From assembly GCA_030834985.1 (NCBI GenBank), contig JAUQWV010000001.1, positions 120,979 through 184,978 on the forward strand: a stretch of 64,000 nucleotides of DNA. Reading direction: 5' to 3'. The notes under the pieces are model-generated. The model made no database searches and was not told the origin of the DNA. It saw only the letters and a list, made by a program, of their open reading frames with translations. This document shows, piece by piece, positions 2,627 to 59,014 of this stretch. A program made the translations under genes and the position numbers. Source of the stretch: Candidatus Dojkabacteria bacterium. GTDB taxonomy: Bacteria; Patescibacteriota; Dojkabacteria; J137. Positions within the stretch are counted from its first letter, which is position 1. Every line of letters begins with the position of its first letter.

Positions 2627-4102
2627 TTAATCGATTCCTAACCAAACTAGTTTAGGTTTAAAATACAAAACAGAGTCGTTACTTACTTTAATACTTAATA
2701 ATTCTTTTTCTTCCTTAGTTTGAATATCAACTATTCTATACTCAATAATTGTTTCTGTTGCTGCGTTATAGTTTCGGTAGTAAGAAAGAGTGTTTTTTGC
2801 TGGGTTATAAATAAAATTGTATAGATCTTGAGGTAATTTAATAGATTCTATAGGTGACATTGTATTATCTTCATTGTTATATCTATTTATTGTGTATATG
2901 CGGTCACCGGAATAGTTCTCTGTATCTTCTGGTAATGAAGTTAACAAATATATGTCGTCACTACCAATTACTTCAATCTGATGCGTTGTTTCACTTTTTT
3001 CTAAATCTCTAATTTTTGTTAAAGATTTATCGTTAATGTTAAGTCTGTTGATACTTGGTCTATTTGTCTCAGGTGGATTGTAAGGATAATAATTCTGCAC
3101 AATAGCGTTTTCATTTTTTGCAGTTATAATGCTAAGAGATCCTGAATGTTGAACCTCGTTATATATATCAGTAAAATTTCTGTCCTTTAAGGCAAAAGCT
3201 TTTTGATATCCTGCATAGCCGCAGCCCAGGTACATAGAAACAACATTGTTAATAATATTTTTGTTATATGGTACGCAGTCTGGATTACCGTCTGTTAAAA
3301 CGGAAAATTTTGAAATATTAGAATCCGCTATATTGTAAAGGAGTAATTCGTTACCTTGAAGTAGAATGATTTTTGTATTATCACTATCGTATCCAACTAG
3401 TTTAATCTCGTGTGCACCAAGCCTATTACTTAAATCATAAGGTAGATACGAAGTATTATATCCTGCAGCAATATCATCTACGTATTCAACATAACTTACC
3501 GGATAACTAATCAATTCATCATACTCGTTTACATATACACTATAACTATTAGGATATATAACAATCTTTTTGTTATATACCTGCTGGTTTGTAGCTCCTA
3601 GATCAATTCTGTCTGTAGACCAAATTAGCTTATTTTCTCCTGTTTCTAAGTTCAGTTCAAAAACTTTGAATGCTATGGGATCAAATTTAAGCTTAGAAAC
3701 ATCCATATTAGATGCGAAAATTTTGTTCTTGTAATCTTTATCAGACAAACTGTAAGTAATTCTTTTTTTATCAGGCGATATAACATAGTCCATTATTTTT
3801 TCATCACCTGATACTAACTCTAGTTGCTTAACTTTATCTAATGTTGATGCAACAAGCTTATTATCATCTGTATTGTAAATAAAATCGTAGTTATCATAGA
3901 TTTTATCAGATGCTATATTTGGAGCAATTTGAACTTCAGGGGTCTTAGAACCATTTAGGACCAAGGCTATAACTGCAATCATACACAGCAGTACTACTGA
4001 AACAATCGCTGCTGCAATTTTAAATTTCCGTGTTTTGGCTAACGTTTTAAGTTTAGATAGTCTTGAAGCCTTTGTTTCGCCTTGGAGAGCTTGGGTTTCC
4101 AT
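2627..4102 (-). CDS. hypothetical membrane-anchored protein (491 aa), large extracytoplasmic domain
   Basis: One N-terminal TM helix (IAAAIVSVVLLCMIAVIALVL); the rest is polar and Tyr/Asn-rich, beta-rich-looking. Confidence 0.55.
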   Translation of the reverse strand: METQALQGETKASRLSKLKTLAKTRKFKIAAAIVSVVLLCMIAVIALVLNGSKTPEVQIAPNIASDKIYDNYDFIYNTDDNKLVASTLDKVKQLELVSGDEKIMDYVISPDKKRITYSLSDKDYKNKIFASNMDVSKLKFDPIAFKVFELNLETGENKLIWSTDRIDLGATNQQVYNKKIVIYPNSYSVYVNEYDELISYPVSYVEYVDDIAAGYNTSYLPYDLSNRLGAHEIKLVGYDSDNTKIILLQGNELLLYNIADSNISKFSVLTDGNPDCVPYNKNIINNVVSMYLGCGYAGYQKAFALKDRNFTDIYNEVQHSGSLSIITAKNENAIVQNYYPYNPPETNRPSINRLNINDKSLTKIRDLEKSETTHQIEVIGSDDIYLLTSLPEDTENYSGDRIYTINRYNNEDNTMSPIESIKLPQDLYNFIYNPAKNTLSYYRNYNAATETIIEYRIVDIQTKEEKELLSIKVSNDSVLYFKPKLVWLGID

Positions 4103-25831: not shown

Positions 25832-25859
25832 TTGTTTGCTCAGGTTTCTCTGCTATAAT
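25832..25859 (+). promoter_or_regulatory. putative promoter TTGTTT-16-TATAAT upstream of the surface-protein gene
   Basis: Hexamers read from the sequence. The ORF-track TTG start at 25836 lies inside this element, which argues for a downstream start. Confidence 0.3.
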
Positions 25860-25898
25860 GAACAAAAATATAGTACTTTAGTTGTTATTTATACTATA

Positions 25899-28800
25899 GT
25901 GAAACGACTAACACACCAACTGCGCATTGGTTTGTATTTATCAATGCTAGCAATGTATTTTATTTCTCCCTTGGCTCCATTAGTAGCCGCAGATAATCCC
26001 CCAAGCTCATACCCTAGCGTTTTAGAGCAAGACCTAACGGATGGAACTGTTGAAACACCAGTGGAAGAGGAAGTTCCTGAACAAGAAACTCCTGTAACCG
26101 AGGAAGAACTACCGCTTACTTATCCTACTTCAAGCCCTTTACTTGAAGTTCCAAGTAAGGTTGTAGAAGGTAAAAAGGTTACTTACAATAACATTACTAC
26201 AGGTACAACATATATTTATGATTTCAATAGCGCTGTAACAATTAACTTTGCTGCTTTACCAGAAGGTGAATGGCATTTAAATATTGAGGAAGTTCAAGTT
26301 ACAGTAGATGGTCAAACTACAACAGGTTATGAATTCACTTCGAATTTAGTAGATGGAACTTTTGAATATGCAATGACCTTACCAAATCCTTACGGAACTT
26401 CTGCAGTTGTCAAATATTCTGAAGATGGCACTACTTATCAAGAATTAACTAACGAAGAAGTAGTTAGCAATGTACTAAGGTTCACTGCTGATCACTTTAC
26501 TGTGTTTGTAGTTGTACCTGATGACATTGTTCCAAGTAATATTGTCTCTTACTTTCATCAAGGCTGGAGATTAACTAGAGTTGGTAATGCTTCTATTGGA
26601 TTAACGGATATTACGACAGCAGGAGCTACCAACGCTTTTGGCCCTGACATTATTGGTATGAGTAGACCTGGAGGAGCTGGAACAAACAGGTCATTTCTTG
26701 GTTATTTTGATTATGGAAGAAGATTAAATGAAATAGAACAGATAAAATGGAATAGATTTAGTAATATTGGTAATGATACTTACCTAAACATATTTATTAC
26801 AAATTCCTTTGGAGGTTTTGGTGTTTTAGGTACAACAGCTACAGTTGTTGTTAAACCTAGCATTACACCTGGTGTTTGGCAAGAAGGAGTATTTGATAGT
26901 TCATCAACAGTAGATCTTAGAGTAGGAGGAACAACCTATACGCTTACATGGTCAGAATTAATGTCAACATACGGAAATTGGTTCATATACAATGATGCAA
27001 ATATATTGGCTAATAGGCAAGTAGGCGGAATTGTATTTGTGTCAGGCTCTTCAAGCCCTACCGCACAGCAAGAACATTATTACGATGGCGTTACTTTGGA
27101 TTTTGTAGGTGAAGATCCAATATTTTATGATTTTGTTCAAGAAGTTCCTGAGCAACCGGTGATAGAGATCTTAACTCCACTTTCTGGTTCATATGTAAAA
27201 GGAACAGTTAATGTAAGAGCTAGAATTACAGATTCAGGCTACGGTTTAAATCCTGACTATATTTGGGCAAAATTCTCAGATGGTATATCTCCTGCTGAGT
27301 TTGGCCCAACTTTGATGACATTAGTTCCTGGCGAAACTGATATTTATCAAGCAAATATCAACACAGTTCCTAATAATGGACTTTATAGTGTTGGCGTTGA
27401 TGTAATTGACAATATCGGTATGGGGAGGTCTGCTAAAAATATAAACGTCACGGTAGATAATACAAGACCAACCTTAGTATTTAATAATCCTTCTGTAGCT
27501 AATCAGCTTGTAGGAAGCGACTTTACTGTTAGTGTAACAGCTACTGATAATACTGTACTTAATTATATTGCTGTAAACTTATACAATGCTACTAACACAA
27601 CCTTACTTGGAACTTGTGGTGTATCACCAACTAATCTTGGAGTAAGTACATATACGTTTGAATGTAATATTGATGTAGATTCTTTATCTGAAGGAATCTA
27701 TACTTTGCGAGCAGGAACTTTTGATGCTGCAGGTAATAATCAAACAACAACTGCAACATTTAAGGTTGATAAAACCGCTCCTGTGTTGACAATTAAAGGT
27801 AGCGTATATGGTAATAGCTACACGCCTGAATCAATTGGAGTTGGTCCCTTAAGTAATGTATTTCAAAAAGTTAGCTTTAAGTTATTTGATAATAACTTAA
27901 TTGATAAAGTAACTGTAAACGGTGTTGTAAATGATATGTCAAATAATCAATGGAGTGATGCTAACAACATAATACCAAATAATTACTGGGGTGCTGTTGA
28001 GGGATTAAATACAATTGTACTATTTGACGCAGCTGGTAACAGCACATCATATGACTTTGTATTAGATACTACAGCGCCAGCTACTCCACTTGGCTTACAT
28101 TATTGGGATCCAAGTACTAGTTCTGAGCTAGCATGCGGATCTATTGTTCAACCAAAAAGTATATGGCCAAGATGGGATGCTAATACAGAAAGTGATTTCT
28201 CTCATTATGAATACACATCATTTGATGTAACTACTTCTGCTCCATTCTGGAGAGTTGGATTAGATGAACAGGTTCTAACCATAAACGAATTTCAACATAG
28301 CTGGGTCCCACCTATGGATGGAATTTACGGTTATGCAGTACGTTCGGTAGATGAAGTAGGTAATAAGTCAGACTGGGCTTTGGGTGGTACAGAAACTCTT
28401 GAAGATAGTTGTCAGTATACGGTTGATAGAGTAAGACCAGTTGCACCTGTAATTGTTTACCCTGATGAAAATGATGCCTTTAATGTAATGCCTATTCTTA
28501 ATGATTGGGAACATGAAGAGGAACTATTAGGAATAGACTTTTATAGAGTTGCCTATTTATATGATGATGGACACGTATTCGGCGGCAGTACATGTCCTGG
28601 CTTACAACTAGAAATAGATGGAGAGCTTAAAACTGTTAGCGGTTGTAGAGACGTAACAGCATCACAAAGATTCCATGTTCCAGATACTATAGAAGAAGGC
28701 GGTGTGAATTTTAAAGTTCAAGCATTTGACTTAGCTGGTAACGAAGGTGAATGGAGTGAATGGCGACATTATTATTACGATATTACTCAGCCATCCTCAT

Positions 28801-30704
28801 CCTTTATTTCACCTGCTGATGGAGCAGTATTCGGCGACAACGTAAATCTTGAAGGTGCTTCAGTGGATGTTATTACTTGGGTAGATGAAGTTTATTTAGA
28901 ATATAGCGAAGCTAATGCAGATAACTGGATTCTATTTGCTACATTGCCAAATACATTAGTTGCTAATCCATATGAATGGAGTTATTCTTGGTCACCTTTA
29001 ATAGAAGATGGTGTATACGATATTAGAGTAAGGGCAATGGATGCTGCAGGTAATGTTGAAAGCACAGATTATATTTATGATATTATATTTGATACTACTT
29101 CCCCATTAAATGTTCCTGTAATTACAGCGCCTACTGCTGAACAGTATTTCAACTCTATTCCAATACTAAATAAATGGACAGCAGTTGTTGATGAGCTAAG
29201 TGGTACAAACAGATATCAAGTAGCTTATTTATATGATGATGGACACGTGTTCGGCGGCAGTACATGTCCTGGCGTAGAGATTGAGATCAGTGGAGTACCG
29301 ACAGCAGTTAGCGGTTGTAGAGATACCTCAAATTTAGAAAGAAATCATACTCCAACACTTTCTGAACAAGGAGGTATAACAATCTGGGTAAGGGCAATTG
29401 ATAATGCTGAAAACGTAGGTGACTGGAGTGATCCTATCCATTACTATTACGATGCTACTGTGCCTGCTGTTCCAACAAATGGATTGCCACATAATCAGTA
29501 TAAAAATACAAATGATGGTTGGTACTTTACTTGGAGTGACGTTACTGACTCCGGTTCCCCAATTCATTATGAGTTTATAGCTTCTCAAAATAATTCAGTA
29601 GATGAGTATGGGGTTTTAAATTCTGGAGTTTGGTATAACACAAGTAGTAGCCATCCTGAACAGAATCCATTGAATTTACCACAGATACTAACTGTTGGTG
29701 CTGCTGAAGGTCAATGGTTCTGGCAAGTTCGCGCAATTGATGAAGCTGGTAATACCAGTAATTGGAGCGAAGTGTGGAATGTAACTATAGATATGACAGA
29801 TCCTGGTGTTGAAATCACATTACCAACTGATTCTTCACTACTTTCTGGCATTCAAGATATAAGAGGTACGGTACAAGACAGTAATCTTGCAGGTTACTTG
29901 ATTGCAATTCTTGATACTTCTCTTTCATTAATTGATGGCCCAATTATAGTTACTGACGGTATATCATTTATAGATGCACTATTACTTAACTGGGATACTG
30001 AACTGGAAGCTGATGGTGACTATGTGATTGTATTAGCAGCAGCTGACCTAGCATGGAATTGGTCAGTAGACTTTATTACTGTAACCATTGATAATACACC
30101 TCCGGTATTAGTATTAGAACCAACAGTAGTAATTAATGAAGGTCAAGTTCTTGGCGAAGGAGACATTTTGGAAGAAGGAGGGAATCCAGAAGATCTACAA
30201 ATAGTTTGCAATCCAGAGTTAGATTCACTACCTTTATCAGTGGATGAAGACGAGACAATTCCTGTTGAATGTACAATAACAGATGCTGCAGGCAATACTG
30301 CAACTCAAACAGTTATGGTAACAATTCTGGACGTTCCTGAAACACCAGAACAGCCTCAAGAAGAAACACCTAGTACTAACCCAGGAACTAATACTGGTAA
30401 CAACCCTGGAACACAGGCAACAGCTTTAGGAAACGCAGAAGTTTTAGGTGCTGATAACGAAGGTGATGTTGAAGGCAATAATCCCGCAAGCTTCCCTGTG
30501 GATGAAGATGACTTAACATCTGATGATTTAACAACAAGAAGCTCTGGTAATGTACAAGGTCTTGGTGACTCGCAAACTACTGAAGGTGAAGAAACAAATA
30601 CAACTTCACCATTATTGGTAATATGCTTAGTTGCTGGTGCTTTATTATTAATCTTATTATTCTTGTTCTTATTCTTAAGAAGAGATAACGAGGAAACGAA
30701 CTAA
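25899..30704 (+). CDS. giant secreted or cell-surface protein (~1600 aa) with multiple Ig-like/beta-sandwich repeats and a C-terminal hydrophobic anchor
   Basis: Probable GTG start at 25899 gives a signal peptide VKRLTHQLRIGLYLSMLAMYFISPLAPLVAA|DN (ATG at 25944 is an alternative). The body is Thr/Asn/Gly-rich with repeated ...YYYD.T.P... modules. C-terminus is ...TNTTSPLLVICLVAGALLLILLFLFLFLRRDNEETN. Confidence 0.7.
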   Translation: MKRLTHQLRIGLYLSMLAMYFISPLAPLVAADNPPSSYPSVLEQDLTDGTVETPVEEEVPEQETPVTEEELPLTYPTSSPLLEVPSKVVEGKKVTYNNITTGTTYIYDFNSAVTINFAALPEGEWHLNIEEVQVTVDGQTTTGYEFTSNLVDGTFEYAMTLPNPYGTSAVVKYSEDGTTYQELTNEEVVSNVLRFTADHFTVFVVVPDDIVPSNIVSYFHQGWRLTRVGNASIGLTDITTAGATNAFGPDIIGMSRPGGAGTNRSFLGYFDYGRRLNEIEQIKWNRFSNIGNDTYLNIFITNSFGGFGVLGTTATVVVKPSITPGVWQEGVFDSSSTVDLRVGGTTYTLTWSELMSTYGNWFIYNDANILANRQVGGIVFVSGSSSPTAQQEHYYDGVTLDFVGEDPIFYDFVQEVPEQPVIEILTPLSGSYVKGTVNVRARITDSGYGLNPDYIWAKFSDGISPAEFGPTLMTLVPGETDIYQANINTVPNNGLYSVGVDVIDNIGMGRSAKNINVTVDNTRPTLVFNNPSVANQLVGSDFTVSVTATDNTVLNYIAVNLYNATNTTLLGTCGVSPTNLGVSTYTFECNIDVDSLSEGIYTLRAGTFDAAGNNQTTTATFKVDKTAPVLTIKGSVYGNSYTPESIGVGPLSNVFQKVSFKLFDNNLIDKVTVNGVVNDMSNNQWSDANNIIPNNYWGAVEGLNTIVLFDAAGNSTSYDFVLDTTAPATPLGLHYWDPSTSSELACGSIVQPKSIWPRWDANTESDFSHYEYTSFDVTTSAPFWRVGLDEQVLTINEFQHSWVPPMDGIYGYAVRSVDEVGNKSDWALGGTETLEDSCQYTVDRVRPVAPVIVYPDENDAFNVMPILNDWEHEEELLGIDFYRVAYLYDDGHVFGGSTCPGLQLEIDGELKTVSGCRDVTASQRFHVPDTIEEGGVNFKVQAFDLAGNEGEWSEWRHYYYDITQPSSSFISPADGAVFGDNVNLEGASVDVITWVDEVYLEYSEANADNWILFATLPNTLVANPYEWSYSWSPLIEDGVYDIRVRAMDAAGNVESTDYIYDIIFDTTSPLNVPVITAPTAEQYFNSIPILNKWTAVVDELSGTNRYQVAYLYDDGHVFGGSTCPGVEIEISGVPTAVSGCRDTSNLERNHTPTLSEQGGITIWVRAIDNAENVGDWSDPIHYYYDATVPAVPTNGLPHNQYKNTNDGWYFTWSDVTDSGSPIHYEFIASQNNSVDEYGVLNSGVWYNTSSSHPEQNPLNLPQILTVGAAEGQWFWQVRAIDEAGNTSNWSEVWNVTIDMTDPGVEITLPTDSSLLSGIQDIRGTVQDSNLAGYLIAILDTSLSLIDGPIIVTDGISFIDALLLNWDTELEADGDYVIVLAAADLAWNWSVDFITVTIDNTPPVLVLEPTVVINEGQVLGEGDILEEGGNPEDLQIVCNPELDSLPLSVDEDETIPVECTITDAAGNTATQTVMVTILDVPETPEQPQEETPSTNPGTNTGNNPGTQATALGNAEVLGADNEGDVEGNNPASFPVDEDDLTSDDLTTRSSGNVQGLGDSQTTEGEETNTTSPLLVICLVAGALLLILLFLFLFLRRDNEETN
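28440..28798 (+). repeat. internal duplicated module, copy 1 (~120 aa domain)
   Basis: Copies share a 51 nt core with 2 mismatches (28571..28621 vs 29224..29274, gcctatttatatgatgatggacacgtattcggcggcagtacatgtcctggc) and the protein motif AYLYDDGHVFGGSTCPG...VSGCRD. Confidence 0.7.
29109..29475 (+). repeat. internal duplicated module, copy 2
   Basis: See copy 1; the two copies are separated by one unrelated Ig-like domain. Confidence 0.7.
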
Positions 30705-30780: not shown

Positions 30781-33700
30781 TTAAGAGAATAACGCGCAGT
30801 ATTCACACTGGCCGCATCTTGGATAATCATCACTTCCGAATTCAAGTTTACGAACTCTAGTGACTATATCGTTGATCTTATCTTTTACAATAGCAATGTC
30901 ATCTTCTGAGATTTGATAATTTACTTTTTTAAACACATTTTTGTCTTTATCTGGCTTTAAAAAGTCTACTTGCACCTCTGATACTATATATTTATCTAGC
31001 TTACCTTTTGGCTTAAAGCTTCTGTCAAGGTCTGTTAAAAGTTTATAGAAAATGAGTTGTCTATAAATATTACCTTTAGAATCTTTTGTAGTGCCTTTTA
31101 TTTGCCCCTCTGTTTTAGGTTCCGATGTTTTATAGTCTACCAATCTTACCTGATTGTTTTCCTTATCTAACCATTCAACTTTATCTATCTTGCCGGTTAA
31201 TTCGATTGGATCTTGATTAGGTAATTCTAGAAATATTCCTTTACTAAAGAACCCGTATTCTACATCTGCTGGTACCTCTATTAGGTCTTTATATTGTGTA
31301 AAATAATTTTTTAGGATCTTCAAACCCTCATCTTTGATTTGTTTGTATTCATCTTCATTTAGTAATTGTCTATCTAAGCTTACTAAGAACATTGCGTTTA
31401 CAAAGCTTATGTCTTTCTGCTGACTCTTAATTAGATTTCTAAAGTATTGCTCAAAGGCATAGTGAATTGCGGTACCCAATATCAAATTGCTATTAGATCC
31501 TTTAGGTGTTTTAATTAGACAGTTGAATTTAAATTTTAAGGGGCATTCTATATACTCATTTAAGGCAGATGCGCTTAATCTGAAGTCTTTAACCAAAGAC
31601 TTCAAATATTCTTCTTCTGTAATAGAATATGGAGCTAAAATATTGGTATTCAAGTCCTTAACGGTATTAATTTCTATAGTTGGAGTTGCATAATCATCGT
31701 GGAATTCAATATATTTTTTATCAAGCTCTGATAAAAATATACTTGGTGAGACCTCCTTTGTAGAGTTACCAGATGGATAAACCTTGGAGTAAGTAATATA
31801 GACCTTTTCACGGGCCCTTGTTAATGCAACAAAGAAAAGCCTACGCTCATCTTCCATATCATCAATGTCGATTTTTTCGGTATCATCTTCTTTTGTTAAA
31901 TCGTAAATGTCAGGAATAAGTTTTAACTTGTCTGCTACCCGGCTATTTCCCCAGTTCTTATCGTAAAACTTAACTATAAATACATATTTATATTCTAAAC
32001 CTTTAGATTTATGTGCAGTCATAAGGTTTACGCCTTCTTTTTCTAGAATAATATCACTTTCTTGTATGCTTAGTTTATTAGCTTCTAGCAAAGTTATATC
32101 TTCCAAAACTTCTGACAAAGTCAGATTTTTATTTTGTAAGTTTAGATTTTTAACATAATCAAAAAACGATTGTATTGAGTTTATTATTTCAAGATTGTTT
32201 TCTTTTATGAAATAGTCAAGGTATCCACTATCGTTGGCTACTTTAATTAAAAAGTTATAAAAATTATAATTTGCAGAATCTGCTTTCCAGTTAATGATAT
32301 TATTGGCTAGTTCAACAATTTTGGATTTATGTTCAATATGTGCTTCATCCAGCGCAGCTTCGTCTAACATTAAATCTATAATTGAAATTTTTTTATCTGC
32401 CGCTGCTCTAGTTAATTTAAATGCATCTAATCTATTTATACCTAAAAAGTTATAGAACATTATTGTGAATAAAAGCTTATCTCGATTTTTATCTGTAAAA
32501 TCAACGACTTTTAAAAGGTTAATAAGCTGCAGTATTTCCTGCTGATCTAAAGAGTTTTTACCAGCAGCGAGTTTGATAGGAACACCATTGTTAATAAGGT
32601 CTAGGGCAAGATCGCTGCCGTCAGCATGTCTTTTATAAAATACAGCAATATCGTTATAACTAATACCGTTTGCAGCAAGCTCTTTGATCTTTTGTATAAT
32701 AAAGTTATTTTCGTGCTGATAGTGCTCAAATTCGTAAACTTCAGCTAGATGGTTGGGAATACTCAATCCTGCTTTTAATCTTTTATCTACTCCTTTTAAA
32801 ATCTTATTGAGTCTTGCTTTATTGTTATCTATTAAGCTAGAAGACAAATCTAAAATATGCTGTGAAGATCTGTAGTTTGTAGTTAAAGAAATTGTAGTTA
32901 CATTCTCAAACTGTTTTTCAAAAAAAAGCAGATTTTCAACATTTGCACCCTGGAATCTGTAAATCGCTTGATCATCGTCTCCTACTGCAAAGATATTAGG
33001 GCTCTTATCAAAGGCAAAAAGCTTTAATAATTCGTTTTGAGAACCATTTGTATCCTGGTATTCATCAACTAAAATATATAAAAACTGCTCTTGGTATTCA
33101 GCTAAAAGCTCATCATCTTTTTTAAACTTATCTATTACAAATAAAATCATATCTTCGTAATCGTAAAAACCTTTTTCTAAAAGTACTTCGCTATATTTTT
33201 TATAAACCATTGCAAGTTCTAGGTTTTTTTTGTAAAGCTTAAGTTTATCTGTATAGTCTTTTTTAGGCTTACCTGTTCTTGAATTGATGTCTGGATTAGC
33301 TTCTAAATCTGCAATAGTTTCTTTACAAATATTTTCCAAAGTTTCGGCAGAAACGCCCTCACGCTTTAATGCCTGAATATTATCTAAAATATTTTTTTGA
33401 TATGTGTATTTATCGTAAAAGGGCACAATTGTAAGTTCTTGTTCGCTTGAAAGTTCATCTAAAATGAGCCTAATGATTTTGATTCTATTAAGGTCATCTA
33501 GTTGTGTTAATTCTTTTGCAAAGGAAAAGTTTTCGGGGTGAGATAATATTACTTCGTTGCAGAAGCTGTGAAAGGTATGAATTCGTACATACAAAGCTTC
33601 CTTACCTATCAGTTTTAAAAGTCTTTTACGCATTGCTGCTACTCCTGACTCTGTAAATGTTAAGCAAAGAATGTTATTTGCAGCAGCGTCAGTTGTGCTT

Positions 33701-33846
33701 AGAATATTAGCAATCCTAAACGATAATACCTGTGTTTTACCAGTTCCAGGCCCTGCAACTACAAGTACAGGACCTTCTATAGCGTTAACTGCTTCCTGCT
33801 GTGAGGGATTTAGCTTTAGTATCTCTGACTCAAGATTTGCATTCAT
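30781..33846 (-). CDS. UvrD/PcrA-family SF1A helicase fused to a C-terminal PD-(D/E)xK nuclease with Cas4/AddB-like cysteine cluster
   Basis: N-terminal VVAGPGTGKTQVL (Walker A), ILVDEYQDTN (motif II), helicase motifs through ~aa 700. C-terminal VDYKTSEPK...YRQLIFYKLL and CGQCEYC with an earlier Cys (YIECPLKF). Confidence 0.75.
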   Translation of the reverse strand: MNANLESEILKLNPSQQEAVNAIEGPVLVVAGPGTGKTQVLSFRIANILSTTDAAANNILCLTFTESGVAAMRKRLLKLIGKEALYVRIHTFHSFCNEVILSHPENFSFAKELTQLDDLNRIKIIRLILDELSSEQELTIVPFYDKYTYQKNILDNIQALKREGVSAETLENICKETIADLEANPDINSRTGKPKKDYTDKLKLYKKNLELAMVYKKYSEVLLEKGFYDYEDMILFVIDKFKKDDELLAEYQEQFLYILVDEYQDTNGSQNELLKLFAFDKSPNIFAVGDDDQAIYRFQGANVENLLFFEKQFENVTTISLTTNYRSSQHILDLSSSLIDNNKARLNKILKGVDKRLKAGLSIPNHLAEVYEFEHYQHENNFIIQKIKELAANGISYNDIAVFYKRHADGSDLALDLINNGVPIKLAAGKNSLDQQEILQLINLLKVVDFTDKNRDKLLFTIMFYNFLGINRLDAFKLTRAAADKKISIIDLMLDEAALDEAHIEHKSKIVELANNIINWKADSANYNFYNFLIKVANDSGYLDYFIKENNLEIINSIQSFFDYVKNLNLQNKNLTLSEVLEDITLLEANKLSIQESDIILEKEGVNLMTAHKSKGLEYKYVFIVKFYDKNWGNSRVADKLKLIPDIYDLTKEDDTEKIDIDDMEDERRLFFVALTRAREKVYITYSKVYPSGNSTKEVSPSIFLSELDKKYIEFHDDYATPTIEINTVKDLNTNILAPYSITEEEYLKSLVKDFRLSASALNEYIECPLKFKFNCLIKTPKGSNSNLILGTAIHYAFEQYFRNLIKSQQKDISFVNAMFLVSLDRQLLNEDEYKQIKDEGLKILKNYFTQYKDLIEVPADVEYGFFSKGIFLELPNQDPIELTGKIDKVEWLDKENNQVRLVDYKTSEPKTEGQIKGTTKDSKGNIYRQLIFYKLLTDLDRSFKPKGKLDKYIVSEVQVDFLKPDKDKNVFKKVNYQISEDDIAIVKDKINDIVTRVRKLEFGSDDYPRCGQCEYCALFS

Positions 33847-33876: not shown

Positions 33877-35634
33877 TTGGTACAATTTAATAAGATGAAA
33901 ATTAAACTTGCTAAACTAGATAATAAAGAATTTAGAGCTTTTGGGATTCTAGCAGTGCTAATGCTTTTAATTGCTTTTATTAATGGTACGCCTTTTCTTT
34001 TTGGAGATTCTTTCGGTTACTTTCATGTAGGTAAAGTTTTTACAACGCAAGGAGTTTACCCTTCATCTGATGTTCCTGATTATTACCCATATACCGGTCA
34101 TGCTGTTGGCTATTTTAATGAAGAATATATAACACCCTATAGTGTTGGCCAGGGAATATTGTGGATTCCTTTTTTATTTGTTTCTTCGATATTTGATAAT
34201 GGCACAGTATTCGATAACTATTACAAAGCTTTTAATGGACATTCCTTGGCAGATGGATTAGCTGTATTACTTGCAGCCTGTACAGCAAGTTATTTAGGAA
34301 TAATATTTACTTATTTATTTTTAAAAGAGTTAGGATTCTCTAAAAGACGTTCTTTTTTTGTTACTTTAATGGTCTTTTTGTCATTATATTTGATTAGCTA
34401 CACGTTTGAGCAGCCCGGATACAGTCACGTGTATGAATTTTTTGCCTACTCCGGGCTGCTTTATTCTCTACTCAAATGCTTATCTACTAAAAGAGCGTTG
34501 TTCTTATACATTGCATCCATATTTGCAGGCCTGCTTGTTCTGATAAGAGTTGTTGATGTTGTGCTTATAATTCCAATATTAGCTCTTGCTGTTTACAGAA
34601 TTAGAAGTAAAAGACCGCTTTTAATAAGCGCTGTTATTTTGACAGTATTTGCTTTGATTTTCTTACTATATAACTATCTTTCTTACGGTAATGCGTTTAC
34701 AGTGGGTTATAACCTATCTTCAAATCAATCAGGAATTTCATTAGGAATAAATATTTTTAATCTGTTATTTTCAGATACTAGAGGATTATTTATTTGGTCA
34801 CCATTAATATTATTATCTGTTATAGGATTAGTATGGTATAGCTTAAAATCGAAAACAGCTATATTAATATTCCTGCTACCGTCAATCCTTCTTTTAGCTG
34901 TATACAATTTTTGGAGTAATTGGTGGGCAGGTGTATCGGCAGGTCAAAGGTTTTTTATTGTTTTGACTCCTTTATTTGCGCTTGGAATTGCTTATCTTTT
35001 AGAAAAAATTAAATATAAATCTGTTATTAAAGCTGCCGTTTTAATAACAACTTTCTATTCTTTAATTGTTGGTGTTTTGTATAGAGTTACACCAATTTTG
35101 AGTGTAGCAAATGACTTCCGTTTACCGGAACCAAGCAGAACAACACCGGCTGAGGAAGACTATAGGGTAAGTGATTTGTTTAGATATCATTATAGATTAC
35201 TAACACAAAGTGGCGGAGTTCAGAATTACTTAAACAACCTAACAGGAAGCCTAAATGGGGGCCGTAGTTTAATACTGTTGACATTAGGCGCAACAGATCC
35301 TTTAGTAAAAGTTGAAGCTATTTCGTCACAGGAATATAGAGTGCATTTTATACCTTCAAATACTCAAAAAAATATAACAACAAATACATTTGTTGTATTT
35401 GCCTCTGATAACATAGTAAAAAGTTATGTAATCCCAAATATGAATTATAAGTACTATTCTGTTATAGCAATAAAGTGTGATGCGCAACTAAATTGTAATT
35501 CTTCGGATATTGATTTGGTAAAAGCTCAAACTGACATTACAGAATTAGAGCTGATAAATGTGTCCTATAATATAAAAATGTATATTTATGGTGAAAGTAC
35601 TAAGCTTAATTTTATTAACCGTAAGTTGAAGTAA
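33877..35634 (+). CDS. polytopic membrane protein (585 aa), possibly a GT-C-fold glycosyltransferase
   Basis: At least 10 predicted TM helices; an acidic motif FGDSFGYF in the first extracytoplasmic loop; large C-terminal soluble domain. The family assignment is weak. Confidence 0.35.
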   Translation: MVQFNKMKIKLAKLDNKEFRAFGILAVLMLLIAFINGTPFLFGDSFGYFHVGKVFTTQGVYPSSDVPDYYPYTGHAVGYFNEEYITPYSVGQGILWIPFLFVSSIFDNGTVFDNYYKAFNGHSLADGLAVLLAACTASYLGIIFTYLFLKELGFSKRRSFFVTLMVFLSLYLISYTFEQPGYSHVYEFFAYSGLLYSLLKCLSTKRALFLYIASIFAGLLVLIRVVDVVLIIPILALAVYRIRSKRPLLISAVILTVFALIFLLYNYLSYGNAFTVGYNLSSNQSGISLGINIFNLLFSDTRGLFIWSPLILLSVIGLVWYSLKSKTAILIFLLPSILLLAVYNFWSNWWAGVSAGQRFFIVLTPLFALGIAYLLEKIKYKSVIKAAVLITTFYSLIVGVLYRVTPILSVANDFRLPEPSRTTPAEEDYRVSDLFRYHYRLLTQSGGVQNYLNNLTGSLNGGRSLILLTLGATDPLVKVEAISSQEYRVHFIPSNTQKNITTNTFVVFASDNIVKSYVIPNMNYKYYSVIAIKCDAQLNCNSSDIDLVKAQTDITELELINVSYNIKMYIYGESTKLNFINRKLK

Positions 35635-50729: not shown

Positions 50730-52574
50730 ATGAAGTCATTGATTGAGAAGATTAATGCAAACCCGAAAGCAGCCATTTTGACAGCAATAATAGGTGTTTT
50801 TGTAGTTTCAACTGCAGTGATCTTAATATTGATAGTGTCTTTAGACAATTCGATTAAAAATCCGGATTCTGTTGTTACACCGGAGGAAAAACGACAAGTT
50901 CTATCGGGGATTATCAAAAACAACACAAAGGAAGCAATTAAAGACCCTGTTACGCCAAATGCTCCGACTAATCCAACTACTGGCGGAAATCAGGCCACAG
51001 ATCCTCAAGTTCCAGTAGTTCCTCAACCTATACCAGTAGAACCGGTTGTTCCTGTTGCACCAGATCCAAAGGATTTACCCATAGTTCCAGATCTAAACGA
51101 GTATAATTATAGAGTAACTACAACGACTACTCAAAAAGGACCGTCATCAGAACTATGTAAAGCTATTACACTTTGGCATGGAGGTGGTTATATGACAGAA
51201 GACCCTTCTGCTGATTTTTTAAAAAGAGAATATCACGACTACTTTGAAAGATATCAAAGTTATAGTAAAGGTTCAGTATACGAGGGAGAAGAGTCTAACT
51301 TATCTGCATTTTACATCAATAAGTGGGGCAGAAAAGAGGCTTCTTACACTGATTATCTAAATGGGTCTTATGCCGTAAGCAATGTTTACAACCCATATCC
51401 TGAATATGATGCTTTAAGTGATGTTAGAACAACAGAAGACGACAATCTATCTGACTATACGATTGATGATTACTTTGGAGAAAACACAGAAATAATTAAT
51501 GTAACTATAGATTCAAAGGGTAATAAAATATATACAATTGTTTCAACATTCCAAACACACTGTAGTGTAAATTATAATCCTCATTTAAAGTTACCTGGCA
51601 TTGAACCATTAGTTCCCTCAACTATATATATTGTTCGAACTGTAAATGAGAAAGGTTTTGAAGTTACCAAAACTGAACGGTACTTAGATGAAATTAATGC
51701 TCAAAGCCTAGTCGATGTTACAATTTCTGAAACTGTAAGATCATTAGTGGATTATGAAAATATAAAAGATGTCTTTGAATTAGATAGTGATGTTGAAATA
51801 GTTACTAGGGATAGAAGACAGTTGCTACCTATTTTAAATACTTACGATGAGCTAGCTAGACAAGTAAACTACCTAGTAAATAGAAATCAGAACATTATAC
51901 TTCCTGTAAAAGATAATACTTTAGCAAGTTTATATGTAGCAGATTACAGACCTGAAAATTATGAGGATTTCTATTACTATCTAAAAGATATCGAGTTCTA
52001 CCCTGATACAGAATGGGGAAGATTTCTTTTTGATAGAACAATGGAAAGATTTTCGTACGATTCTAAGATAGTTTATACTGCAACAGCTTATGGCCTAGAT
52101 GGATATTATCTATATCTTGATAAGTTTGAAGATGGAGTTTCGGCTGATTCAGTAATTTCAGAAATTTTAGGTTTCCAGTCAACTACGACCCAAGTTACTG
52201 ATGGACTTGTATCCTTTGATTCTCTTGAAGATCCAATTATCGCAAAAAGGATAGAGAAATATTTTGAATATAATTATCCTATACCATCTTACCCTGTTTC
52301 TTACAGTGATTATAATTATCAAAGTACGAGTGTATTCTATGTATTTGAATATCGAGGTGATATATACAGATTAACATCTCATACTGCTGCTAAGCATGCG
52401 TACCTTACAGGTTTAGTTAAATTGGTAGATATAAACTTAGAACCATATCCTCAAACGTTGGGTGAAATTATTACTACAGTCTTTAAGTACTATAATAATT
52501 ACTTAAATATAATGGGTTGGCCAACTAGCTATCCGGAAAAGTATCCGATAAGCTACGGAGTTATTGAAGTCTAA
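50730..52574 (+). CDS. hypothetical N-terminally anchored extracytoplasmic protein with Pro-rich linker (614 aa)
   Basis: N-terminal TM, then PQVPVVPQPIPVEPVVPVAPDP linker, then a large Tyr-rich domain. Confidence 0.55.
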   Translation: MKSLIEKINANPKAAILTAIIGVFVVSTAVILILIVSLDNSIKNPDSVVTPEEKRQVLSGIIKNNTKEAIKDPVTPNAPTNPTTGGNQATDPQVPVVPQPIPVEPVVPVAPDPKDLPIVPDLNEYNYRVTTTTTQKGPSSELCKAITLWHGGGYMTEDPSADFLKREYHDYFERYQSYSKGSVYEGEESNLSAFYINKWGRKEASYTDYLNGSYAVSNVYNPYPEYDALSDVRTTEDDNLSDYTIDDYFGENTEIINVTIDSKGNKIYTIVSTFQTHCSVNYNPHLKLPGIEPLVPSTIYIVRTVNEKGFEVTKTERYLDEINAQSLVDVTISETVRSLVDYENIKDVFELDSDVEIVTRDRRQLLPILNTYDELARQVNYLVNRNQNIILPVKDNTLASLYVADYRPENYEDFYYYLKDIEFYPDTEWGRFLFDRTMERFSYDSKIVYTATAYGLDGYYLYLDKFEDGVSADSVISEILGFQSTTTQVTDGLVSFDSLEDPIIAKRIEKYFEYNYPIPSYPVSYSDYNYQSTSVFYVFEYRGDIYRLTSHTAAKHAYLTGLVKLVDINLEPYPQTLGEIITTVFKYYNNYLNIMGWPTSYPEKYPISYGVIEV

Positions 52575-52613
52575 ATGAGAATTTGGATTGTCTTTTGAGA
52601 TAAAAGTTTAGGA

Positions 52614-52639
52614 GGGGGCACCCGAAAGGTGCCCCCTTT
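52614..52639. terminator. bidirectional terminator hairpin gggggcacc-cgaaa-ggtgccccc plus ttt
   Basis: 9 bp GC stem between convergent genes. Confidence 0.55.
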
Positions 52640-52640
52640 G

Positions 52641-53537
52641 CTATCTTTCTAGTTCAGTTACTATATCTCTAAGTTCTGCAGCTTTTTCAAATTCCAGCAT
52701 ATCTGCGTACAACTGCATTTGAAACTTGATTTCTTTTAAGAATTTTTTCTGTTCAGATTTATTCATAGCTTTAAAGCTTTCGGCTTTTGCCAATAAGTTT
52801 TGTTCTTCAGCAGCTTCCTGCTCTGATTCGCTGCCCCCGGCAAAAGCCGAAAGCTGATCCTTAATCTCTTTTACGACTGTTGTAGGAGTAATTCCATGCT
52901 CTTTATTAAACTTATCTTGAATTGCTCTTCTGCGTCTAGTTTCATCAATTGCAAATTTCATAGAATCAGTAATTTTATCAGCATACATTATTACTCTGCC
53001 TTCAGAGTGTCTGGCTGCTCTACCTATTACCTGAATTAAACTAGTCTGAGATCTTAAAAAACCTTCTTTATCGGCATCTAAAATTGCTACTAACGATACT
53101 TCTGGCAAATCTAAGCCCTCTCTTAAAAGGTTAATACCAACAAGCACATCGTACTGTCCTAATCTTAATTCCTTTAATATCTTTACTCTTTCCAAAGAAT
53201 CTATATCTGAATGCAAGTATTTTGCCTTAATGCCTTTTTCAGTAAGATAGTCAGATAGTTCTTCTGACATTCTTTTTGTTAAAGTTGTAACTAGAACCCT
53301 TTGCTTTTTTTTAATGGTCGCCTGAATTTCATCTATTAAGTTTGGAACCTGTGGTTGAGTCCAATCTGATGCGTTATATAAAGGCATATCTGTATAGCCG
53401 TTTTTTTCTAAATCTTTTTTGAGGTTAGAAAATGTCTCGGGCAATGAAGGACGAACTTCTACAATAGGGTCAAGAAGCCCTGTTGGTCTAATAATTTGAT
53501 AAACAATTCCTTTGTAGTCTTTTGGTAAAATTGCCAT
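52641..53537 (-). CDS. uvrB: UvrB C-terminal half only (helicase domain 2 plus UvrC-binding UVR domain); N-terminal ATPase half absent, possible pseudogene
   Basis: [16 protein letters not shown], then [18 protein letters not shown]...[57 protein letters not shown], near-identical to recollected E. coli UvrB from ~residue 400. C-terminal [11 protein letters not shown] is the UVR motif. Only 37 nt separate it from dcd upstream, so there is no room for the missing half. Confidence 0.7.
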
Positions 53538-53574
53538 GCTTTAATTTTAGCACTGCATGGATAATTAGCGTAGT

Positions 53575-54138
53575 TTACTTTCTTGCCTTTTTAAGGGCTC
53601 TAAACTTACTTTCAGAATCTTTAAATACCCGACTCCCTACAGTATCAAGCTGACCCTGGTATTTGCCAAGGTAAGGTTTATCTGCTTTTTGGTCCATGTA
53701 ACAGAATACAAATTGGCAGATCCTTCTGTTCTTTTCTAAAACTATAGGTAAGGAATTCGCGTTGTATAGCTCTAAAGTAACTTTTCCTTTAAATCCTGGA
53801 TCTACCCATCCAGCGTTTTGAATAAATAATCCCATTCTGCCAATAGAGCTTCTACCCTCTACAAAGGCGGTAATATTATCCGGAAGTTCAATATATTCAA
53901 CCGTAGTAGCTAGTACAAAGCTATGAGAAGGTATTGCTATTTTATCTTTAACGATCTTTCTATACTTAATTTCTTCGCTCATACTTATTGTCGACATCTC
54001 TGAGTTGTCAATTTCTAAGAAGGTATCACCTAGTCTGCAGTCAATAGATGCAGGCTGAATTGATTCGTCAGTTAAAGGATCAACTACTAATTCACCACTT
54101 TTTATTAACCTTTTTAAAGTTTTGTCTGAAATTATCAT
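53575..54138 (-). CDS. dcd: dCTP deaminase
   Basis: PASIDCRLG, VDPGFKGKVTLELYN, and the dUTPase-fold length. Confidence 0.85.
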   Translation of the reverse strand: MIISDKTLKRLIKSGELVVDPLTDESIQPASIDCRLGDTFLEIDNSEMSTISMSEEIKYRKIVKDKIAIPSHSFVLATTVEYIELPDNITAFVEGRSSIGRMGLFIQNAGWVDPGFKGKVTLELYNANSLPIVLEKNRRICQFVFCYMDQKADKPYLGKYQGQLDTVGSRVFKDSESKFRALKKARK

Positions 54139-54152
54139 ATATGTTTAGTTAA

Positions 54153-55961
54153 TTATGTACGTTCTGAAAACTGTTGTCTAGAGTTGTAATCTGGTGCCGA
54201 GATATCTTCAGTCATTCCTACCAAAAATGGATCAGAGTTCTGTATAAGTGTAAGCATATCGTGTGCCATATCTCTATTAGAAATATCGTTACCAGTTGTA
54301 GAGCGTTGGTCTGTAAAGTAATCCAATTGTGTAGGTGGTCCGCTTAAGTGCATTCGCGTTTGATGTCCTAGTGGAAGCAGTTTTCTAATTACAGTTAGAT
54401 CTTTATTAGGAAATCTTGCCGCTAAATATTTATAGAATTCCATTAACTTTTGATAATATGCATTGGCATCAGCTTCCCATTGACCCTGTAAGTGCTGTAA
54501 ACCTTCAGTTTTAATAATTTTTGAACTTGTATTAAAGCCATTCGCGATCATAGCCTCATAGTCTACTTGGTCATTTTCGTTATAATCAAAATTTAGCAAG
54601 TATCCAATATCTTGTCTACCTAACGCTCTGTGTCGATTAAAGTCTCTTAATTGGGCTAATGCGGTATTAAGTACAAATAATTTATCACCTCTAATATCAC
54701 CTAGATTACCCATCTTTTCATGTCGAGTATGATTTTGGAATATAATTGAACCTATCTCTCTTTTTGCTTGATCATCTAATGTGGCCAACCAACTTAATAC
54801 TGTTGATTCTTTAAGATTAGGATATGCGGTGCAAATGTACTGCATTGCTACTAAAGCGCCACTTGGGGCGCCGTCAATAAGGGTTACTTCTGTTTGCCTT
54901 GCATAATCCACGGTGTTAGGGACGGCGCCCTCCAATAACTCATTAAATGCTGGCATTGCTTCCAAATATGCTCTTAAATTACTTACGTTTTCTCTTATTG
55001 TAAGTGTAGGATCAGTATATTTTATTAATGGTTCAAGATTCGCATTTACATCTTGCCCCTCTTCTGTTTCTGAAAGTGAAAGTGCAAATCTAAGTTGCTC
55101 TGCTAACTCTACATATTCCTGCTCGCCAGTTTCTTGCATTATTTTTATATAGTTATTGAAGATTCTTTGATTACCTAATAGGCACATAGAAGTAGTTGCG
55201 CCCATAGGAATCCAACTTCTTACTACATCTAACACTCTGGCTTTTATAGTATTGTCTTCTAATGGTTCATCTTCTGGATTGCCTGCAAACTGCTGTAGGT
55301 AACCCTGCTCAATTAATTGGTACCACTTAACGTAATTACCTTCAGCCATTGCTAATAGCTCATAATATTGCTCAATAATATGCTCTTTATCCGCTTCAGA
55401 TCCTGCAGGAATTACCGAAAAATCCATTAAATCTTCAATCCGCGGAAAATTCATCTTATTGAATTTTATATATCTGCTTGAAGATTCCTGTCCATCGCCA
55501 TACCATAGATGATGGAAAATCCAGTATGCCTGCTCTAGCGATATATTATTAAAGAATAGAAATACTGGAATCATTCCCAGGATAGATTGATGTCCATAAT
55601 CTAGTCCAAATTCCTTAATCTTTCTTGCAGCAGCAACAGGATCCATTTGTACAAGCTCCAATACTTCATCAAAGATCTCTTCATAGCTTTTTCTAGTTCT
55701 AGAGGTTCTGGCGCCGCTCCAGGCGGGAAAAATATGCTTATCTATTCCTCCTTCTGATTTCGGTTCACTAAATGGAAAGAATGAGACAATCGGTTTTGTA
55801 GGATCTTGTCTTTTAACCTGATATAGCAAGTTGTGCAGTTTACCGTCAACTTCTCTTGTTACAACATCGATAGAAAATTTAGGAGGGTGTTGTACTTCAG
55901 CTTCTGATTCTACAGATTCTGGCCGTGTTTTAGATATTTCTTGATTCTGATCTAAAGACAT
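54153..55961 (-). CDS. large ThyX-family (flavin-dependent thymidylate synthase)-like protein with duplicated-domain architecture (602 aa)
   Basis: C-terminal half: FNRHRALGRQDIGY (RHR motif) and RKLLPLGHQTRMHLSGPPTQLDYF, aligned by eye to recollected T. maritima ThyX [24 protein letters not shown]. N-terminal half: GHQSILGMIPVF and YWIFHHLWYGDGQESSSRYIKF versus ThyX GHETPFEHIVF / [20 protein letters not shown] (RHR degenerate, SxRY kept). Adjacent to dcd. Confidence 0.5.
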   Translation of the reverse strand: MSLDQNQEISKTRPESVESEAEVQHPPKFSIDVVTREVDGKLHNLLYQVKRQDPTKPIVSFFPFSEPKSEGGIDKHIFPAWSGARTSRTRKSYEEIFDEVLELVQMDPVAAARKIKEFGLDYGHQSILGMIPVFLFFNNISLEQAYWIFHHLWYGDGQESSSRYIKFNKMNFPRIEDLMDFSVIPAGSEADKEHIIEQYYELLAMAEGNYVKWYQLIEQGYLQQFAGNPEDEPLEDNTIKARVLDVVRSWIPMGATTSMCLLGNQRIFNNYIKIMQETGEQEYVELAEQLRFALSLSETEEGQDVNANLEPLIKYTDPTLTIRENVSNLRAYLEAMPAFNELLEGAVPNTVDYARQTEVTLIDGAPSGALVAMQYICTAYPNLKESTVLSWLATLDDQAKREIGSIIFQNHTRHEKMGNLGDIRGDKLFVLNTALAQLRDFNRHRALGRQDIGYLLNFDYNENDQVDYEAMIANGFNTSSKIIKTEGLQHLQGQWEADANAYYQKLMEFYKYLAARFPNKDLTVIRKLLPLGHQTRMHLSGPPTQLDYFTDQRSTTGNDISNRDMAHDMLTLIQNSDPFLVGMTEDISAPDYNSRQQFSERT

Positions 55962-57519: not shown

Positions 57520-58614
57520 TTAGAAACTTTTTAATATATATGAGTTTAAATTATAACTTTTAGCAAGCTCAATGAGGTAGTTTTGACTTAGATGTTTTGG
57601 GTAAACTATATAATTAGTTTCAATCCCGGTACCGATTTGGGCGATATTATCATCTAATTGATAATTATTTAAAACAGTTATGTTTGTAGATGATAATATC
57701 GCTTCAAGCTGACTCGCATTTAAAACTTCAACCTGCTGAGTACTTAGAACATAGTTATCTACATAATTATCTGTAATTTCTCGATTAGGCCATTTATAAG
57801 TGATATTGTTAATCACCAAGGTTATTTTTGAAGGATTAATGCCTTTATAAATATAGTATTGAATTATATTTTCGGCCCAATCGTTTTTGGTAATAGGTCC
57901 AACACTATTTGAGTTAATAGTTGTATAGCCGTAGGCATGTATTCTTACTTTATTACTTAGATTATTTATTACACTGATAGAAGCTGCCGACTTATAAAAA
58001 TTAGAAACAGGTGCTAGATAATCGTAATCCATTACATCACTCCACTTAGGGGGTAATCCTACATTTATTTTGATATTCTTATCTACTGTAAGTTTAGCCA
58101 GTTCTCTTAAAACATCTTCAATATTATTAACTTTATTTGTTATTGAAACATCAATATCGATTTCCTTTAATTCATTATCTATTATTGCGTCGTAAATAAC
58201 ATTTGTTACTTGCTGATCAGGTAAAGTTCCTGAATTCGGATCAGTAAAGAACAATGGGATTATATCTTCTTTTAAGTCACTTACAACTTCAACCTGCAGT
58301 GAATCTTCACTTTTAGTAAGTTTAAAAGTATATTGAATATTTTCCACTACAGGATTTATATCTGATTGATCGCCATTTATAAAATGTGCCTGATTTATGT
58401 TTCCGGGTTTACTATTTTTTTTAACTAAAGAGTCTAAACTAAGTTCTTCAGCTTGCACATTTGAAATCGTATTGTCTGTTATATCAATCCTTTGATCTAT
58501 ATATGTAACGTTTTCTGCTTTATAAGAGGTGTAAAGGTAATAATTTAATGTACCGAGTGCAGCAATTATTAAGATTTGTAAAAATATTAGTATAGATAGA
58601 ATCTTCTTAAACAT
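57520..58614 (-). CDS. hypothetical membrane-anchored protein (364 aa)
   Basis: N-terminal TM; rest polar and Asn-rich. Confidence 0.5.
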   Translation of the reverse strand: MFKKILSILIFLQILIIAALGTLNYYLYTSYKAENVTYIDQRIDITDNTISNVQAEELSLDSLVKKNSKPGNINQAHFINGDQSDINPVVENIQYTFKLTKSEDSLQVEVVSDLKEDIIPLFFTDPNSGTLPDQQVTNVIYDAIIDNELKEIDIDVSITNKVNNIEDVLRELAKLTVDKNIKINVGLPPKWSDVMDYDYLAPVSNFYKSAASISVINNLSNKVRIHAYGYTTINSNSVGPITKNDWAENIIQYYIYKGINPSKITLVINNITYKWPNREITDNYVDNYVLSTQQVEVLNASQLEAILSSTNITVLNNYQLDDNIAQIGTGIETNYIVYPKHLSQNYLIELAKSYNLNSYILKSF

Positions 58615-59014
58615 TATCCCGCTCTAAAGAGTCTAAAATAATATTGACAAGTTTGTCAGCATGTTTATTCTCAGCTCTAGGAACATGGGTAAATGATATT
58701 GAAGAAAAATCTTTTGCAAGTTCTTTAACTTTGCTTACAAGAGGCTTAATATCCGCACTGGATACTTTGTATTCACCATTGATCTGTTTTACTACCAGTT
58801 CACTATCTAAAAAACACGCTACACTGTCTGTATGCTTTTTAGCTAGTTTTAAGCCTTCAATAAGTGCGTTATACTCTGCAAAATTATTTGTAGCAGATCC
58901 CAGAAATTTTGCTCCAAGATCTATTAGATCGTTATCGTTAAATAATAAAAATGCTGCTGCGCTGCTACCAGGATTTCCGCGTGAGCCGCCATCTGTGAAT
59001 AATTTAAAATTCAT
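58607..59014 (-). CDS. rnhA: ribonuclease HI
   Basis: TDGGSRGNPG, NNFAEYNALIEGLKLA, DSELVVKQI, HVPRAENKHADKLVN (DEDD plus His). Confidence 0.85.
   Translation of the reverse strand: MNFKLFTDGGSRGNPGSSAAAFLLFNDNDLIDLGAKFLGSATNNFAEYNALIEGLKLAKKHTDSVACFLDSELVVKQINGEYKVSSADIKPLVSKVKELAKDFSSISFTHVPRAENKHADKLVNIILDSLERDNV

Follow-up and report, generated by a model that had tools for sequence, protein, structure and literature searches.

The window, that is, the whole 64-kb stretch of DNA analysed here, carries on its minus strand an open reading frame of 298 codons (52641..53537) with an ATG start, which the ORF list, Pfam, NCBIfam, tblastn and comparison with relatives identify as the C-terminal part of UvrB. 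Upstream of it lies dcd (53575..54138, minus strand), 37 nt away from the ATG at 53537, so close, as the original prediction had stated, that there is no room for the rest of the gene; the spacer is full of stops throughout its in-frame translation, and no remnant of domains 1a, 2 or 1b was found in it, either in the window or in four relatives. Next to dcd, a 602-aa ORF (54153..55961, minus strand) shows a weak match to ThyX (Thy1) over residues 104–290 (41 bits); it is more than twice as long as an ordinary ThyX and is kept in the loci of relatives. On the other side, a 614-aa ORF (50730..52574, plus strand) converges with the short uvrB gene; its product has a hydrophobic segment at the N-terminus and a stretch rich in Pro and Val, and Pfam gives no match. 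Both genes have in common a G+C-rich, terminator-like hairpin (52611..52639) that can serve either strand, with a 12-pair stem (8 GC), a T tail on the plus strand and, for the minus-strand RNA, a computed folding energy of −23.7 kcal/mol (z −3.9). Farther away, the window encodes an AddA-type UvrD helicase of 1021 aa with a C-terminal PD-(D/E)XK nuclease (30781..33846, minus strand), its divergent neighbour of 585 aa without Pfam match (33877..35634, plus strand), and a protein of 1622 aa with several bacterial Ig-like domains (Big_13, Big_3_3, Big_7; 25836..30704, plus strand), which is probably a surface protein.

An extended −10-like box, TGCTAAAAT, lies 6 nt before the ATG (53544..53552, minus strand). 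The same element, TGnTAAAAT, is found 6–7 nt before the ATG in three relatives (L004, L006 and L007), i.e., in four of five loci compared. A −35/−10 scan made no promoter call at this position, because a −35 element is absent; the box probably serves the gene as a promoter of its own, from which, as judged from its sequence and spacing, a leaderless or nearly leaderless mRNA would start. This signature occurs at only about 10% of the window genes and is absent at unsplit uvrB, for which reason it was set aside as a handle for finding other loci. Across the window, Shine-Dalgarno-like motifs precede only about 4 of 55 ORFs, and a TAnAAT box is found 6–8 nt before the start codon of about 6 of 55 (e.g., those at 985, 23445–25259, 58607–59014 and 59653–60840), which suggests that leaderless or Shine-Dalgarno-independent initiation may be frequent in the host organism.

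Domain composition of the short UvrB

The product contains UvrB domain 3, the UvrB motif and the UVR domain, and nothing else. Pfam places Helicase_C at residues 68–177 (76.7 bits), the UvrB-specific motif PF12344 at residues 184–226 and UVR at residues 264–297, so that both the UvrB motif and the C-terminal UVR domain are in place. The NCBIfam model NF003673/TIGR00631 aligns over approximately positions 405–653 of its 653 with 346 bits, below the equivalog cut-off of 743 bits set for whole UvrB, and when the window is searched by tblastn with the E. coli protein, residues 401–665 align to this ORF and residues 1–400 find no match. Neither Pfam nor tblastn detects domain 1a, with its Walker A (motif I), DESH (motif II) and motif III, in the ORF or elsewhere in the window, and the β-hairpin and domains 1b and 2 likewise have no tblastn match in the 64 kb. 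The original prediction of a UvrB reduced to its C-terminal half, lacking Walker A, the β-hairpin and domains 1a, 1b and 2, is therefore accurate.

Aligned to the solved UvrBs, the protein begins at about residue 407 of B. subtilis UvrB. Its first ten residues (53508..53537) appear to be a remnant of the ancestral linker between domains 1a and 3, with an LPKDY segment in common with the unsplit protein P0315. Residues 11–30 (53448..53507) comprise, from conservation and the P0315 model, a short strand, the hinge and the first strand of domain 3 (VEVRP), and are the best-conserved stretch of the protein, with a mean column conservation of 0.91. Residues 31–61 (53355..53447) are 31 extra residues that fall in a gap of the solved UvrBs, directly after this first strand and that the original prediction had not mentioned; this lineage-specific insertion follows the pattern SLPETF..LK....GY.DMP......W..PQ, conserved in the family of short proteins, and is modelled in P0315 as a helix plus a floppy loop. 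The RecA-like core of domain 3, defined by Pfam and alignment, occupies residues 62–183 (52989..53354) and holds helicase motifs IV–VI together with R139, D143, F160, R173 and R176, the equivalents of B. caldotenax R506, D510, F527, R540 and R543, with which domain 3 contributes its half of the ATP site and contacts DNA (PMC3458569). It is followed by the UvrB motif (52860..52988; Pfam, 84.2 bits), by a variable, acidic and lysine-rich linker to domain 4 at residues 227–262 (52752..52859; conservation 0.57), and by the helix-loop-helix UVR domain, or domain 4, at residues 263–298 (52644..52751), recognised by PF02151 with 23.8 bits (cut-off 21.5). Compared with canonical UvrB (Bacillus caldotenax and B. 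subtilis; PDB 1D9Z, 2D7D and 6O8E), the window protein is 46–58% identical over the part that it shares with them, from domain 3 through the UvrB motif to the UVR domain, and all the catalytic and DNA-contact residues of domain 3 are present; it differs in representing about 45% of the protein, in the 31-aa insertion and in that, in its lineage, domains 1a, 1b and 2 and the β-hairpin are encoded by a separate gene.

A conserved family of short proteins

The best 120 database relatives are 61–100% identical to the window protein and 259–329 aa long, nearly all of them 293–317 aa. The short-form family thus counts at least 121 members; those with names belong to Candidatus Dojkabacteria or the Patescibacteria group, and several lie on contigs of 0.8–1.19 Mb, among them P0020, P0088 and P0028 on contigs of 1,193,217, 1,149,470 and 1,117,227 bp. 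The 122 short sequences included in a distance tree of the C-terminal part all fall into a single clade that contains no other protein. Motif IV and the residues R139, D143, F160, R173 and R176 are conserved in all of 121 family sequences. The dN/dS of the window gene is 0.08, 0.10 and 0.15 against its orthologues L006, L004 and L002, which are 82, 75 and 60% identical in amino acid sequence, respectively. The first of these (CAYPVU010000045.1) comes from a metagenome-assembled genome labelled ‘uncultured Candidatus Saccharibacteria’, a taxonomic label that looks doubtful given a short uvrB of Dojkabacteria type. Many independent sequencing runs yielded assemblies of an identical 298-aa gene, with the thyX-like gene and dcd beside it as in the window, and a 76%-identical copy sits on a complete chromosome of 1.14 Mb. 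A complete genome of 1,140,724 bp, OY969472.1, carries the short form. Relaxed selection, frame disruptions and erratic length, the marks of a pseudogene, are thus not features of this family, to which databases give names as diverse as ‘UvrB/UvrC motif-containing protein’, ‘helicase-related protein’ and ‘hypothetical’.

A scan of genome contigs with the C-half retrieved two family loci, the remaining matches being ordinary uvrB, and scans of viral collections found only bacterial uvrB at prophage edges. One candidate, P0121, proved to be an assembly repeat and was discarded. Synteny comparison revealed no conserved neighbours of uvrB in either the split or the unsplit lineages, and hence no operon partner.

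Unsplit relatives and the predicted site of the break

The closest unsplit relatives in the tree are P0315 (722 aa) and P0368 (711 aa), with the metagenomic L259 also unsplit. All three belong to the same clade as the window family and carry both the 31-aa insertion in domain 3 and an LPKDY..IIRPTG segment (...LPKDYTGMVQQIIRPTG). The insertion is therefore older than the break, and the new start codon must have arisen inside the loop that, in P0315, is predicted to be disordered. The AlphaFold (AF2) model of this protein (pLDDT 85.9, pTM 0.80; TM 0.85–0.92 to solved UvrBs) has the motif III strand at 386–391, a helix at 396–412 and a coil at 413–435, with pLDDT below 50 at 417–425, followed by a short strand at 436–439, the RPTG hinge and the domain 3 strand at 450–454. 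The initial Met of the window protein corresponds to about residue 426 of P0315, and its residues 1–10 to about 426–435, the end of the low-confidence coil; in the model, then, the break lies in a disordered loop between motif III and the inter-domain hinge.

A larger and more distant clade of unsplit Dojkabacteria proteins (P0133 and P0271–P0298; 702–829 aa) shows an unusual plasticity of the same linker, with insertions of 55–131 aa located between motif III (SATP) and IIRPTG, where the window protein begins. These insertions (e.g., in L087, 10001–12199, and L089, 10001–12151) start with a conserved SATPQEYELINSIEEAQ helix. From these alignments, the linker between domains 1a and 3 appears as a hotspot for insertions as well as for splits. 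While the unsplit Dojkabacteria-type UvrBs are single polypeptides of 702–829 aa, in the window family a stop and a start replace about ten residues of the linker and the two genes would lie dispersed in the genome.

Stand-alone N-terminal halves

No gene for the N-terminal half was found in the window, in the 10 kb past its right end or in the 3.8 kb past its left end (about 78 kb overall), and tblastn with the E. coli protein did not reveal one up to 10 kb away from the C-half genes of four further members of the family. uvrA and uvrC, which the original prediction had proposed to look for together with this half, were likewise not found in the window or in these two flanks. Baits from the N-half of the larger unsplit clade (a single protein and a profile) listed only full-length UvrBs; these searches are uninformative and too insensitive to count, since the distance of the short forms from that clade equals that of generic UvrBs. 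An N-half-only match, P0385 (422 aa), is a frameshifted ordinary uvrB.

A more specific probe was provided by a lineage marker, the motif I-[DE]-x-[L/M]-R-x-x-A-T, in which the [L/M] position is Leu or Met in generic UvrBs (206 of 206) and Tyr (Tyr121) in those of Dojkabacteria type. Patterns derived from a purpose-made alignment numbered only two and were unselective. Since exact family-specific 8-mers are kept in only about 2.5% of members, we used a hand-built DNA pattern of fixed spacing that combined the universal UvrB frame with this single marker residue; among 140 loci, it matched only the four uvrB loci of Dojkabacteria type. Scanning metagenomes with it gave at least 120 loci, most of them ordinary full-length uvrB. 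Among the matches listed, L182, L187 and L241 stand out by their low GC and by the highest identity to the N-half of P0315. L182 contains an N-half ORF of 415 aa, which starts MEFNLVSNFAPSGDQPLAIEY and ends with ...SATPSEWEIKMSNLAAEQVLGNNKV and a stop codon, with an endonuclease III-like gene downstream; L187 contains an equivalent ORF ending with ...ATPAKYELEQSKLSAQEVLGK and a stop, with unrelated genes downstream. Both therefore terminate in ...QVLG followed by NNKV or K. At about position 630 of L187, a single in-frame TAA replaces the universal Tyr of YYQPEAY, either through a sequencing error or as a real nonsense mutation. L241 carries both halves on one strand of one contig: an N-half of 411 aa, an ORF of 127 aa and a C-half of 297 aa starting MKILPKNYNGIVEQLIRPTG. 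The intervening ORF (3270..3653, minus strand) is hydrophobic and without family match, and the spacer has no mobile-element signature or terminal repeats. L182 and L187 are on contigs of 3–4 kb, came out as singletons in cluster look-ups, and carry no link to a genome with a C-half.

The three N-halves (N182, N187 and N241) keep Walker A, the β-hairpin motif, DESH and motif III, and UvrB_inter is present in N182 and N241. They match the UvrB model over positions 1–410 with 634–649 bits (N182, 634), the complement of the approximately 405–653 covered by the window ORF, and their dN/dS is 0.10. N-halves end at about residues 412–416 of P0315, 20–25 residues after SATP, and C-halves start at about 426–428, 8–10 residues before the IIRPTG strand, so that, for the clade as a whole, intact and separate ORFs cover the ancestral UvrB without overlap. 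No intein fragments, as trans-splicing would need, were found at the new termini of either half; the ancestral linker accounts for all terminal residues.

Phylogeny of the two halves

In the tree of the N-terminal part, N182 and N187 group together with 98% bootstrap support, and both join P0315, P0368 and L259 with 100%; in that of the C-terminal part, the short-form family joins the same three unsplit proteins with 89%. N182 is 64.5, 63.5 and 58.8% identical to P0315, P0368 and L259, respectively, and the window C-half 65.7, 64.7 and 59.5%. To judge from these sequences, N182 and N187 occupy the mirror-image position of the C-half family, at matching distances, and congruent trees go together with purifying selection in the N-half as well as in the C-half.

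The two halves of L241 have another origin. Each pairs with the unsplit L238 (100 and 87% bootstrap), to which both are about 77% identical, and they join the main split family in 0% of replicates. As they group with L238 and never with the main family, uvrB has been split at the linker loop at least twice independently.

Discussion

In this study, we have described a short uvrB gene whose product most probably is one of two separately encoded subunits of UvrB, the C-terminal one. UvrB belongs to the SF2 helicases; its ATP site is lodged in the cleft that separates the RecA-like domains 1a and 3, which both contact the inner DNA strand, and its domain 4, the UVR domain, recruits UvrC (PMC6750098, PMC3458569). 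According to the model that we propose, the break in the uvrB of an ancestor similar to P0315 and P0368 would have occurred in a disordered loop at the protein surface, some 20 residues long, between the helix that follows motif III, at the end of domain 1a, and the short strand that precedes the RPTG hinge. The N-terminal gene, of about 410–415 codons, would have kept Walker A, the β-hairpin, the UvrA-binding domain 2, DESH and motif III, and the C-terminal gene, with a start codon and probably a promoter of its own, motifs IV–VI, the arginines of the ATP site, the F-loop phenylalanine and the UVR domain that, in canonical UvrB, recruits UvrC (PMC3458569). As domains 1a and 3 border the ATP site from either side, neither half would be able to hydrolyse ATP alone. 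Since the motif VI arginines are invariant in the C-half and Walker A and B are kept in the N-halves, the simplest account would be that the two polypeptides reassemble non-covalently and work with UvrA and UvrC as a normal UvrB. By analogy with other SF2 folds, the short strand ahead of the hinge in the C-half may originally close domain 1a as its last strand, and might assist in docking the two halves. The genome of the window would then carry an N-half, the two halves would associate, and excision repair would be functional. Of the original prediction, which had left a choice between a decaying gene and a split one, the second part has indirect but convergent support, in that stand-alone N-halves with complementary ends and a mirrored phylogeny exist in the lineage; as no N-half was located in the approximately 78 kb around the gene, the split reading is, for the window's own genome, strongly supported rather than proven.

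The position of the break has a parallel in the laboratory. A 409-residue N-terminal domain of T. thermophilus UvrB has been crystallised with UvrD (PDB 7EGT), and the natural cut, at essentially the same place, therefore respects an autonomous folding unit; the crystallised fragment is a construct rather than a natural gene, and no natural C-terminal counterpart was co-expressed.

A biological precedent is found in the reverse gyrase of Nanoarchaeum equitans, encoded in an ultra-small genome by two dispersed genes whose products are presumed to reassemble without protein splicing. Both systems are multidomain nucleic-acid enzymes on two dispersed genes of ultra-small genomes; in UvrB, however, the cut falls between the RecA-like domains, so that the ATP site must form across two polypeptides.

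The split might be adaptive, with domain 3 and UVR forming a dissociable and separately regulated subunit, at the same time ATPase lid and UvrC recruiter; subunit assembly would then control UvrB loading and the licensing of incision. We consider this rather doubtful. Two independent breaks, as well as the insertions of 55–131 aa, are compatible with an adaptive split and with simple structural tolerance in equal measure.

Other explanations account less well for the data. The C-half could stand alone in a changed role, e.g., as an adaptor that binds UvrC or in partnership with another ATPase, the N-half and perhaps nucleotide excision repair having been lost. The lack of an N-half, of uvrA and of uvrC in the approximately 78 kb around the gene, the absence of a conserved operon partner and an insertion without assigned role all speak for such a change. 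We nevertheless hold it to be unlikely: the equivalents of R540 and R543, like motifs V and VI, do not vary among 121 sequences, which is sensible only beside a domain with Walker A and B, and matching N-half-only genes exist in the same clade, under purifying selection and at an equal evolutionary distance. A duplicated fragment, i.e., an extra partial copy beside a full-length uvrB elsewhere in the genome, is quite improbable. Dojkabacteria with full-length uvrB do exist (P0284 and its clade), but the short-form family is monophyletic, with sisters that are single unsplit genes and not co-resident paralogues, and a duplication would leave the N-half-only genes unexplained; furthermore, as weak evidence, no listed full-length UvrB of Dojkabacteria type sits on a contig that matches in length any of the six large contigs with the short form.

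The original prediction had also offered a decaying pseudogene, marking the loss of nucleotide excision repair, and here we disagree with it. That half of the protein is encoded, with a score under the UvrB equivalog cut-off, is what such decay would produce, but the frame is intact and constant in length in at least 121 diverged relatives that form a monophyletic family, dN/dS is 0.08–0.15, the catalytic residues are invariant, the start context with its −10-like box is conserved and the terminator hairpin is clean, and independent assemblies with varied gene contexts exclude the mis-assembly of one sequence; decay is thus very improbable. A frameshift or chimeric contig hiding a normal uvrB, for which P0385 and P0121 are precedents in the databases, is hardly credible, with dcd 37 nt upstream, no upstream frame encoding UvrB, and the locus recovered in many independent samples and in the complete 1.14-Mb chromosome.

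Full-text literature searches did not turn up a UvrB described as split or of half size, and the two-gene UvrB is a novel form of a well-known enzyme, of moderate interest for specialists in repair and helicases. For helicase biology, it represents a natural fragment complementation in which the ATP site of an SF2 motor must form between two polypeptides; the arrangement has persisted in more than 120 diverged lineages and arose twice at this loop. The linker loop is thereby a permissive cut site for engineering a split UvrB, and the system is a tractable one in which to ask how tightly RecA-like domains need to be tethered. From the point of view of annotation, genome surveys with full-length UvrB models would score organisms with the short form as deficient in nucleotide excision repair, or the gene as a fragment; recognition of the two-gene UvrB is of practical value, as it corrects the inventories of repair pathways for a whole class of Patescibacteria.
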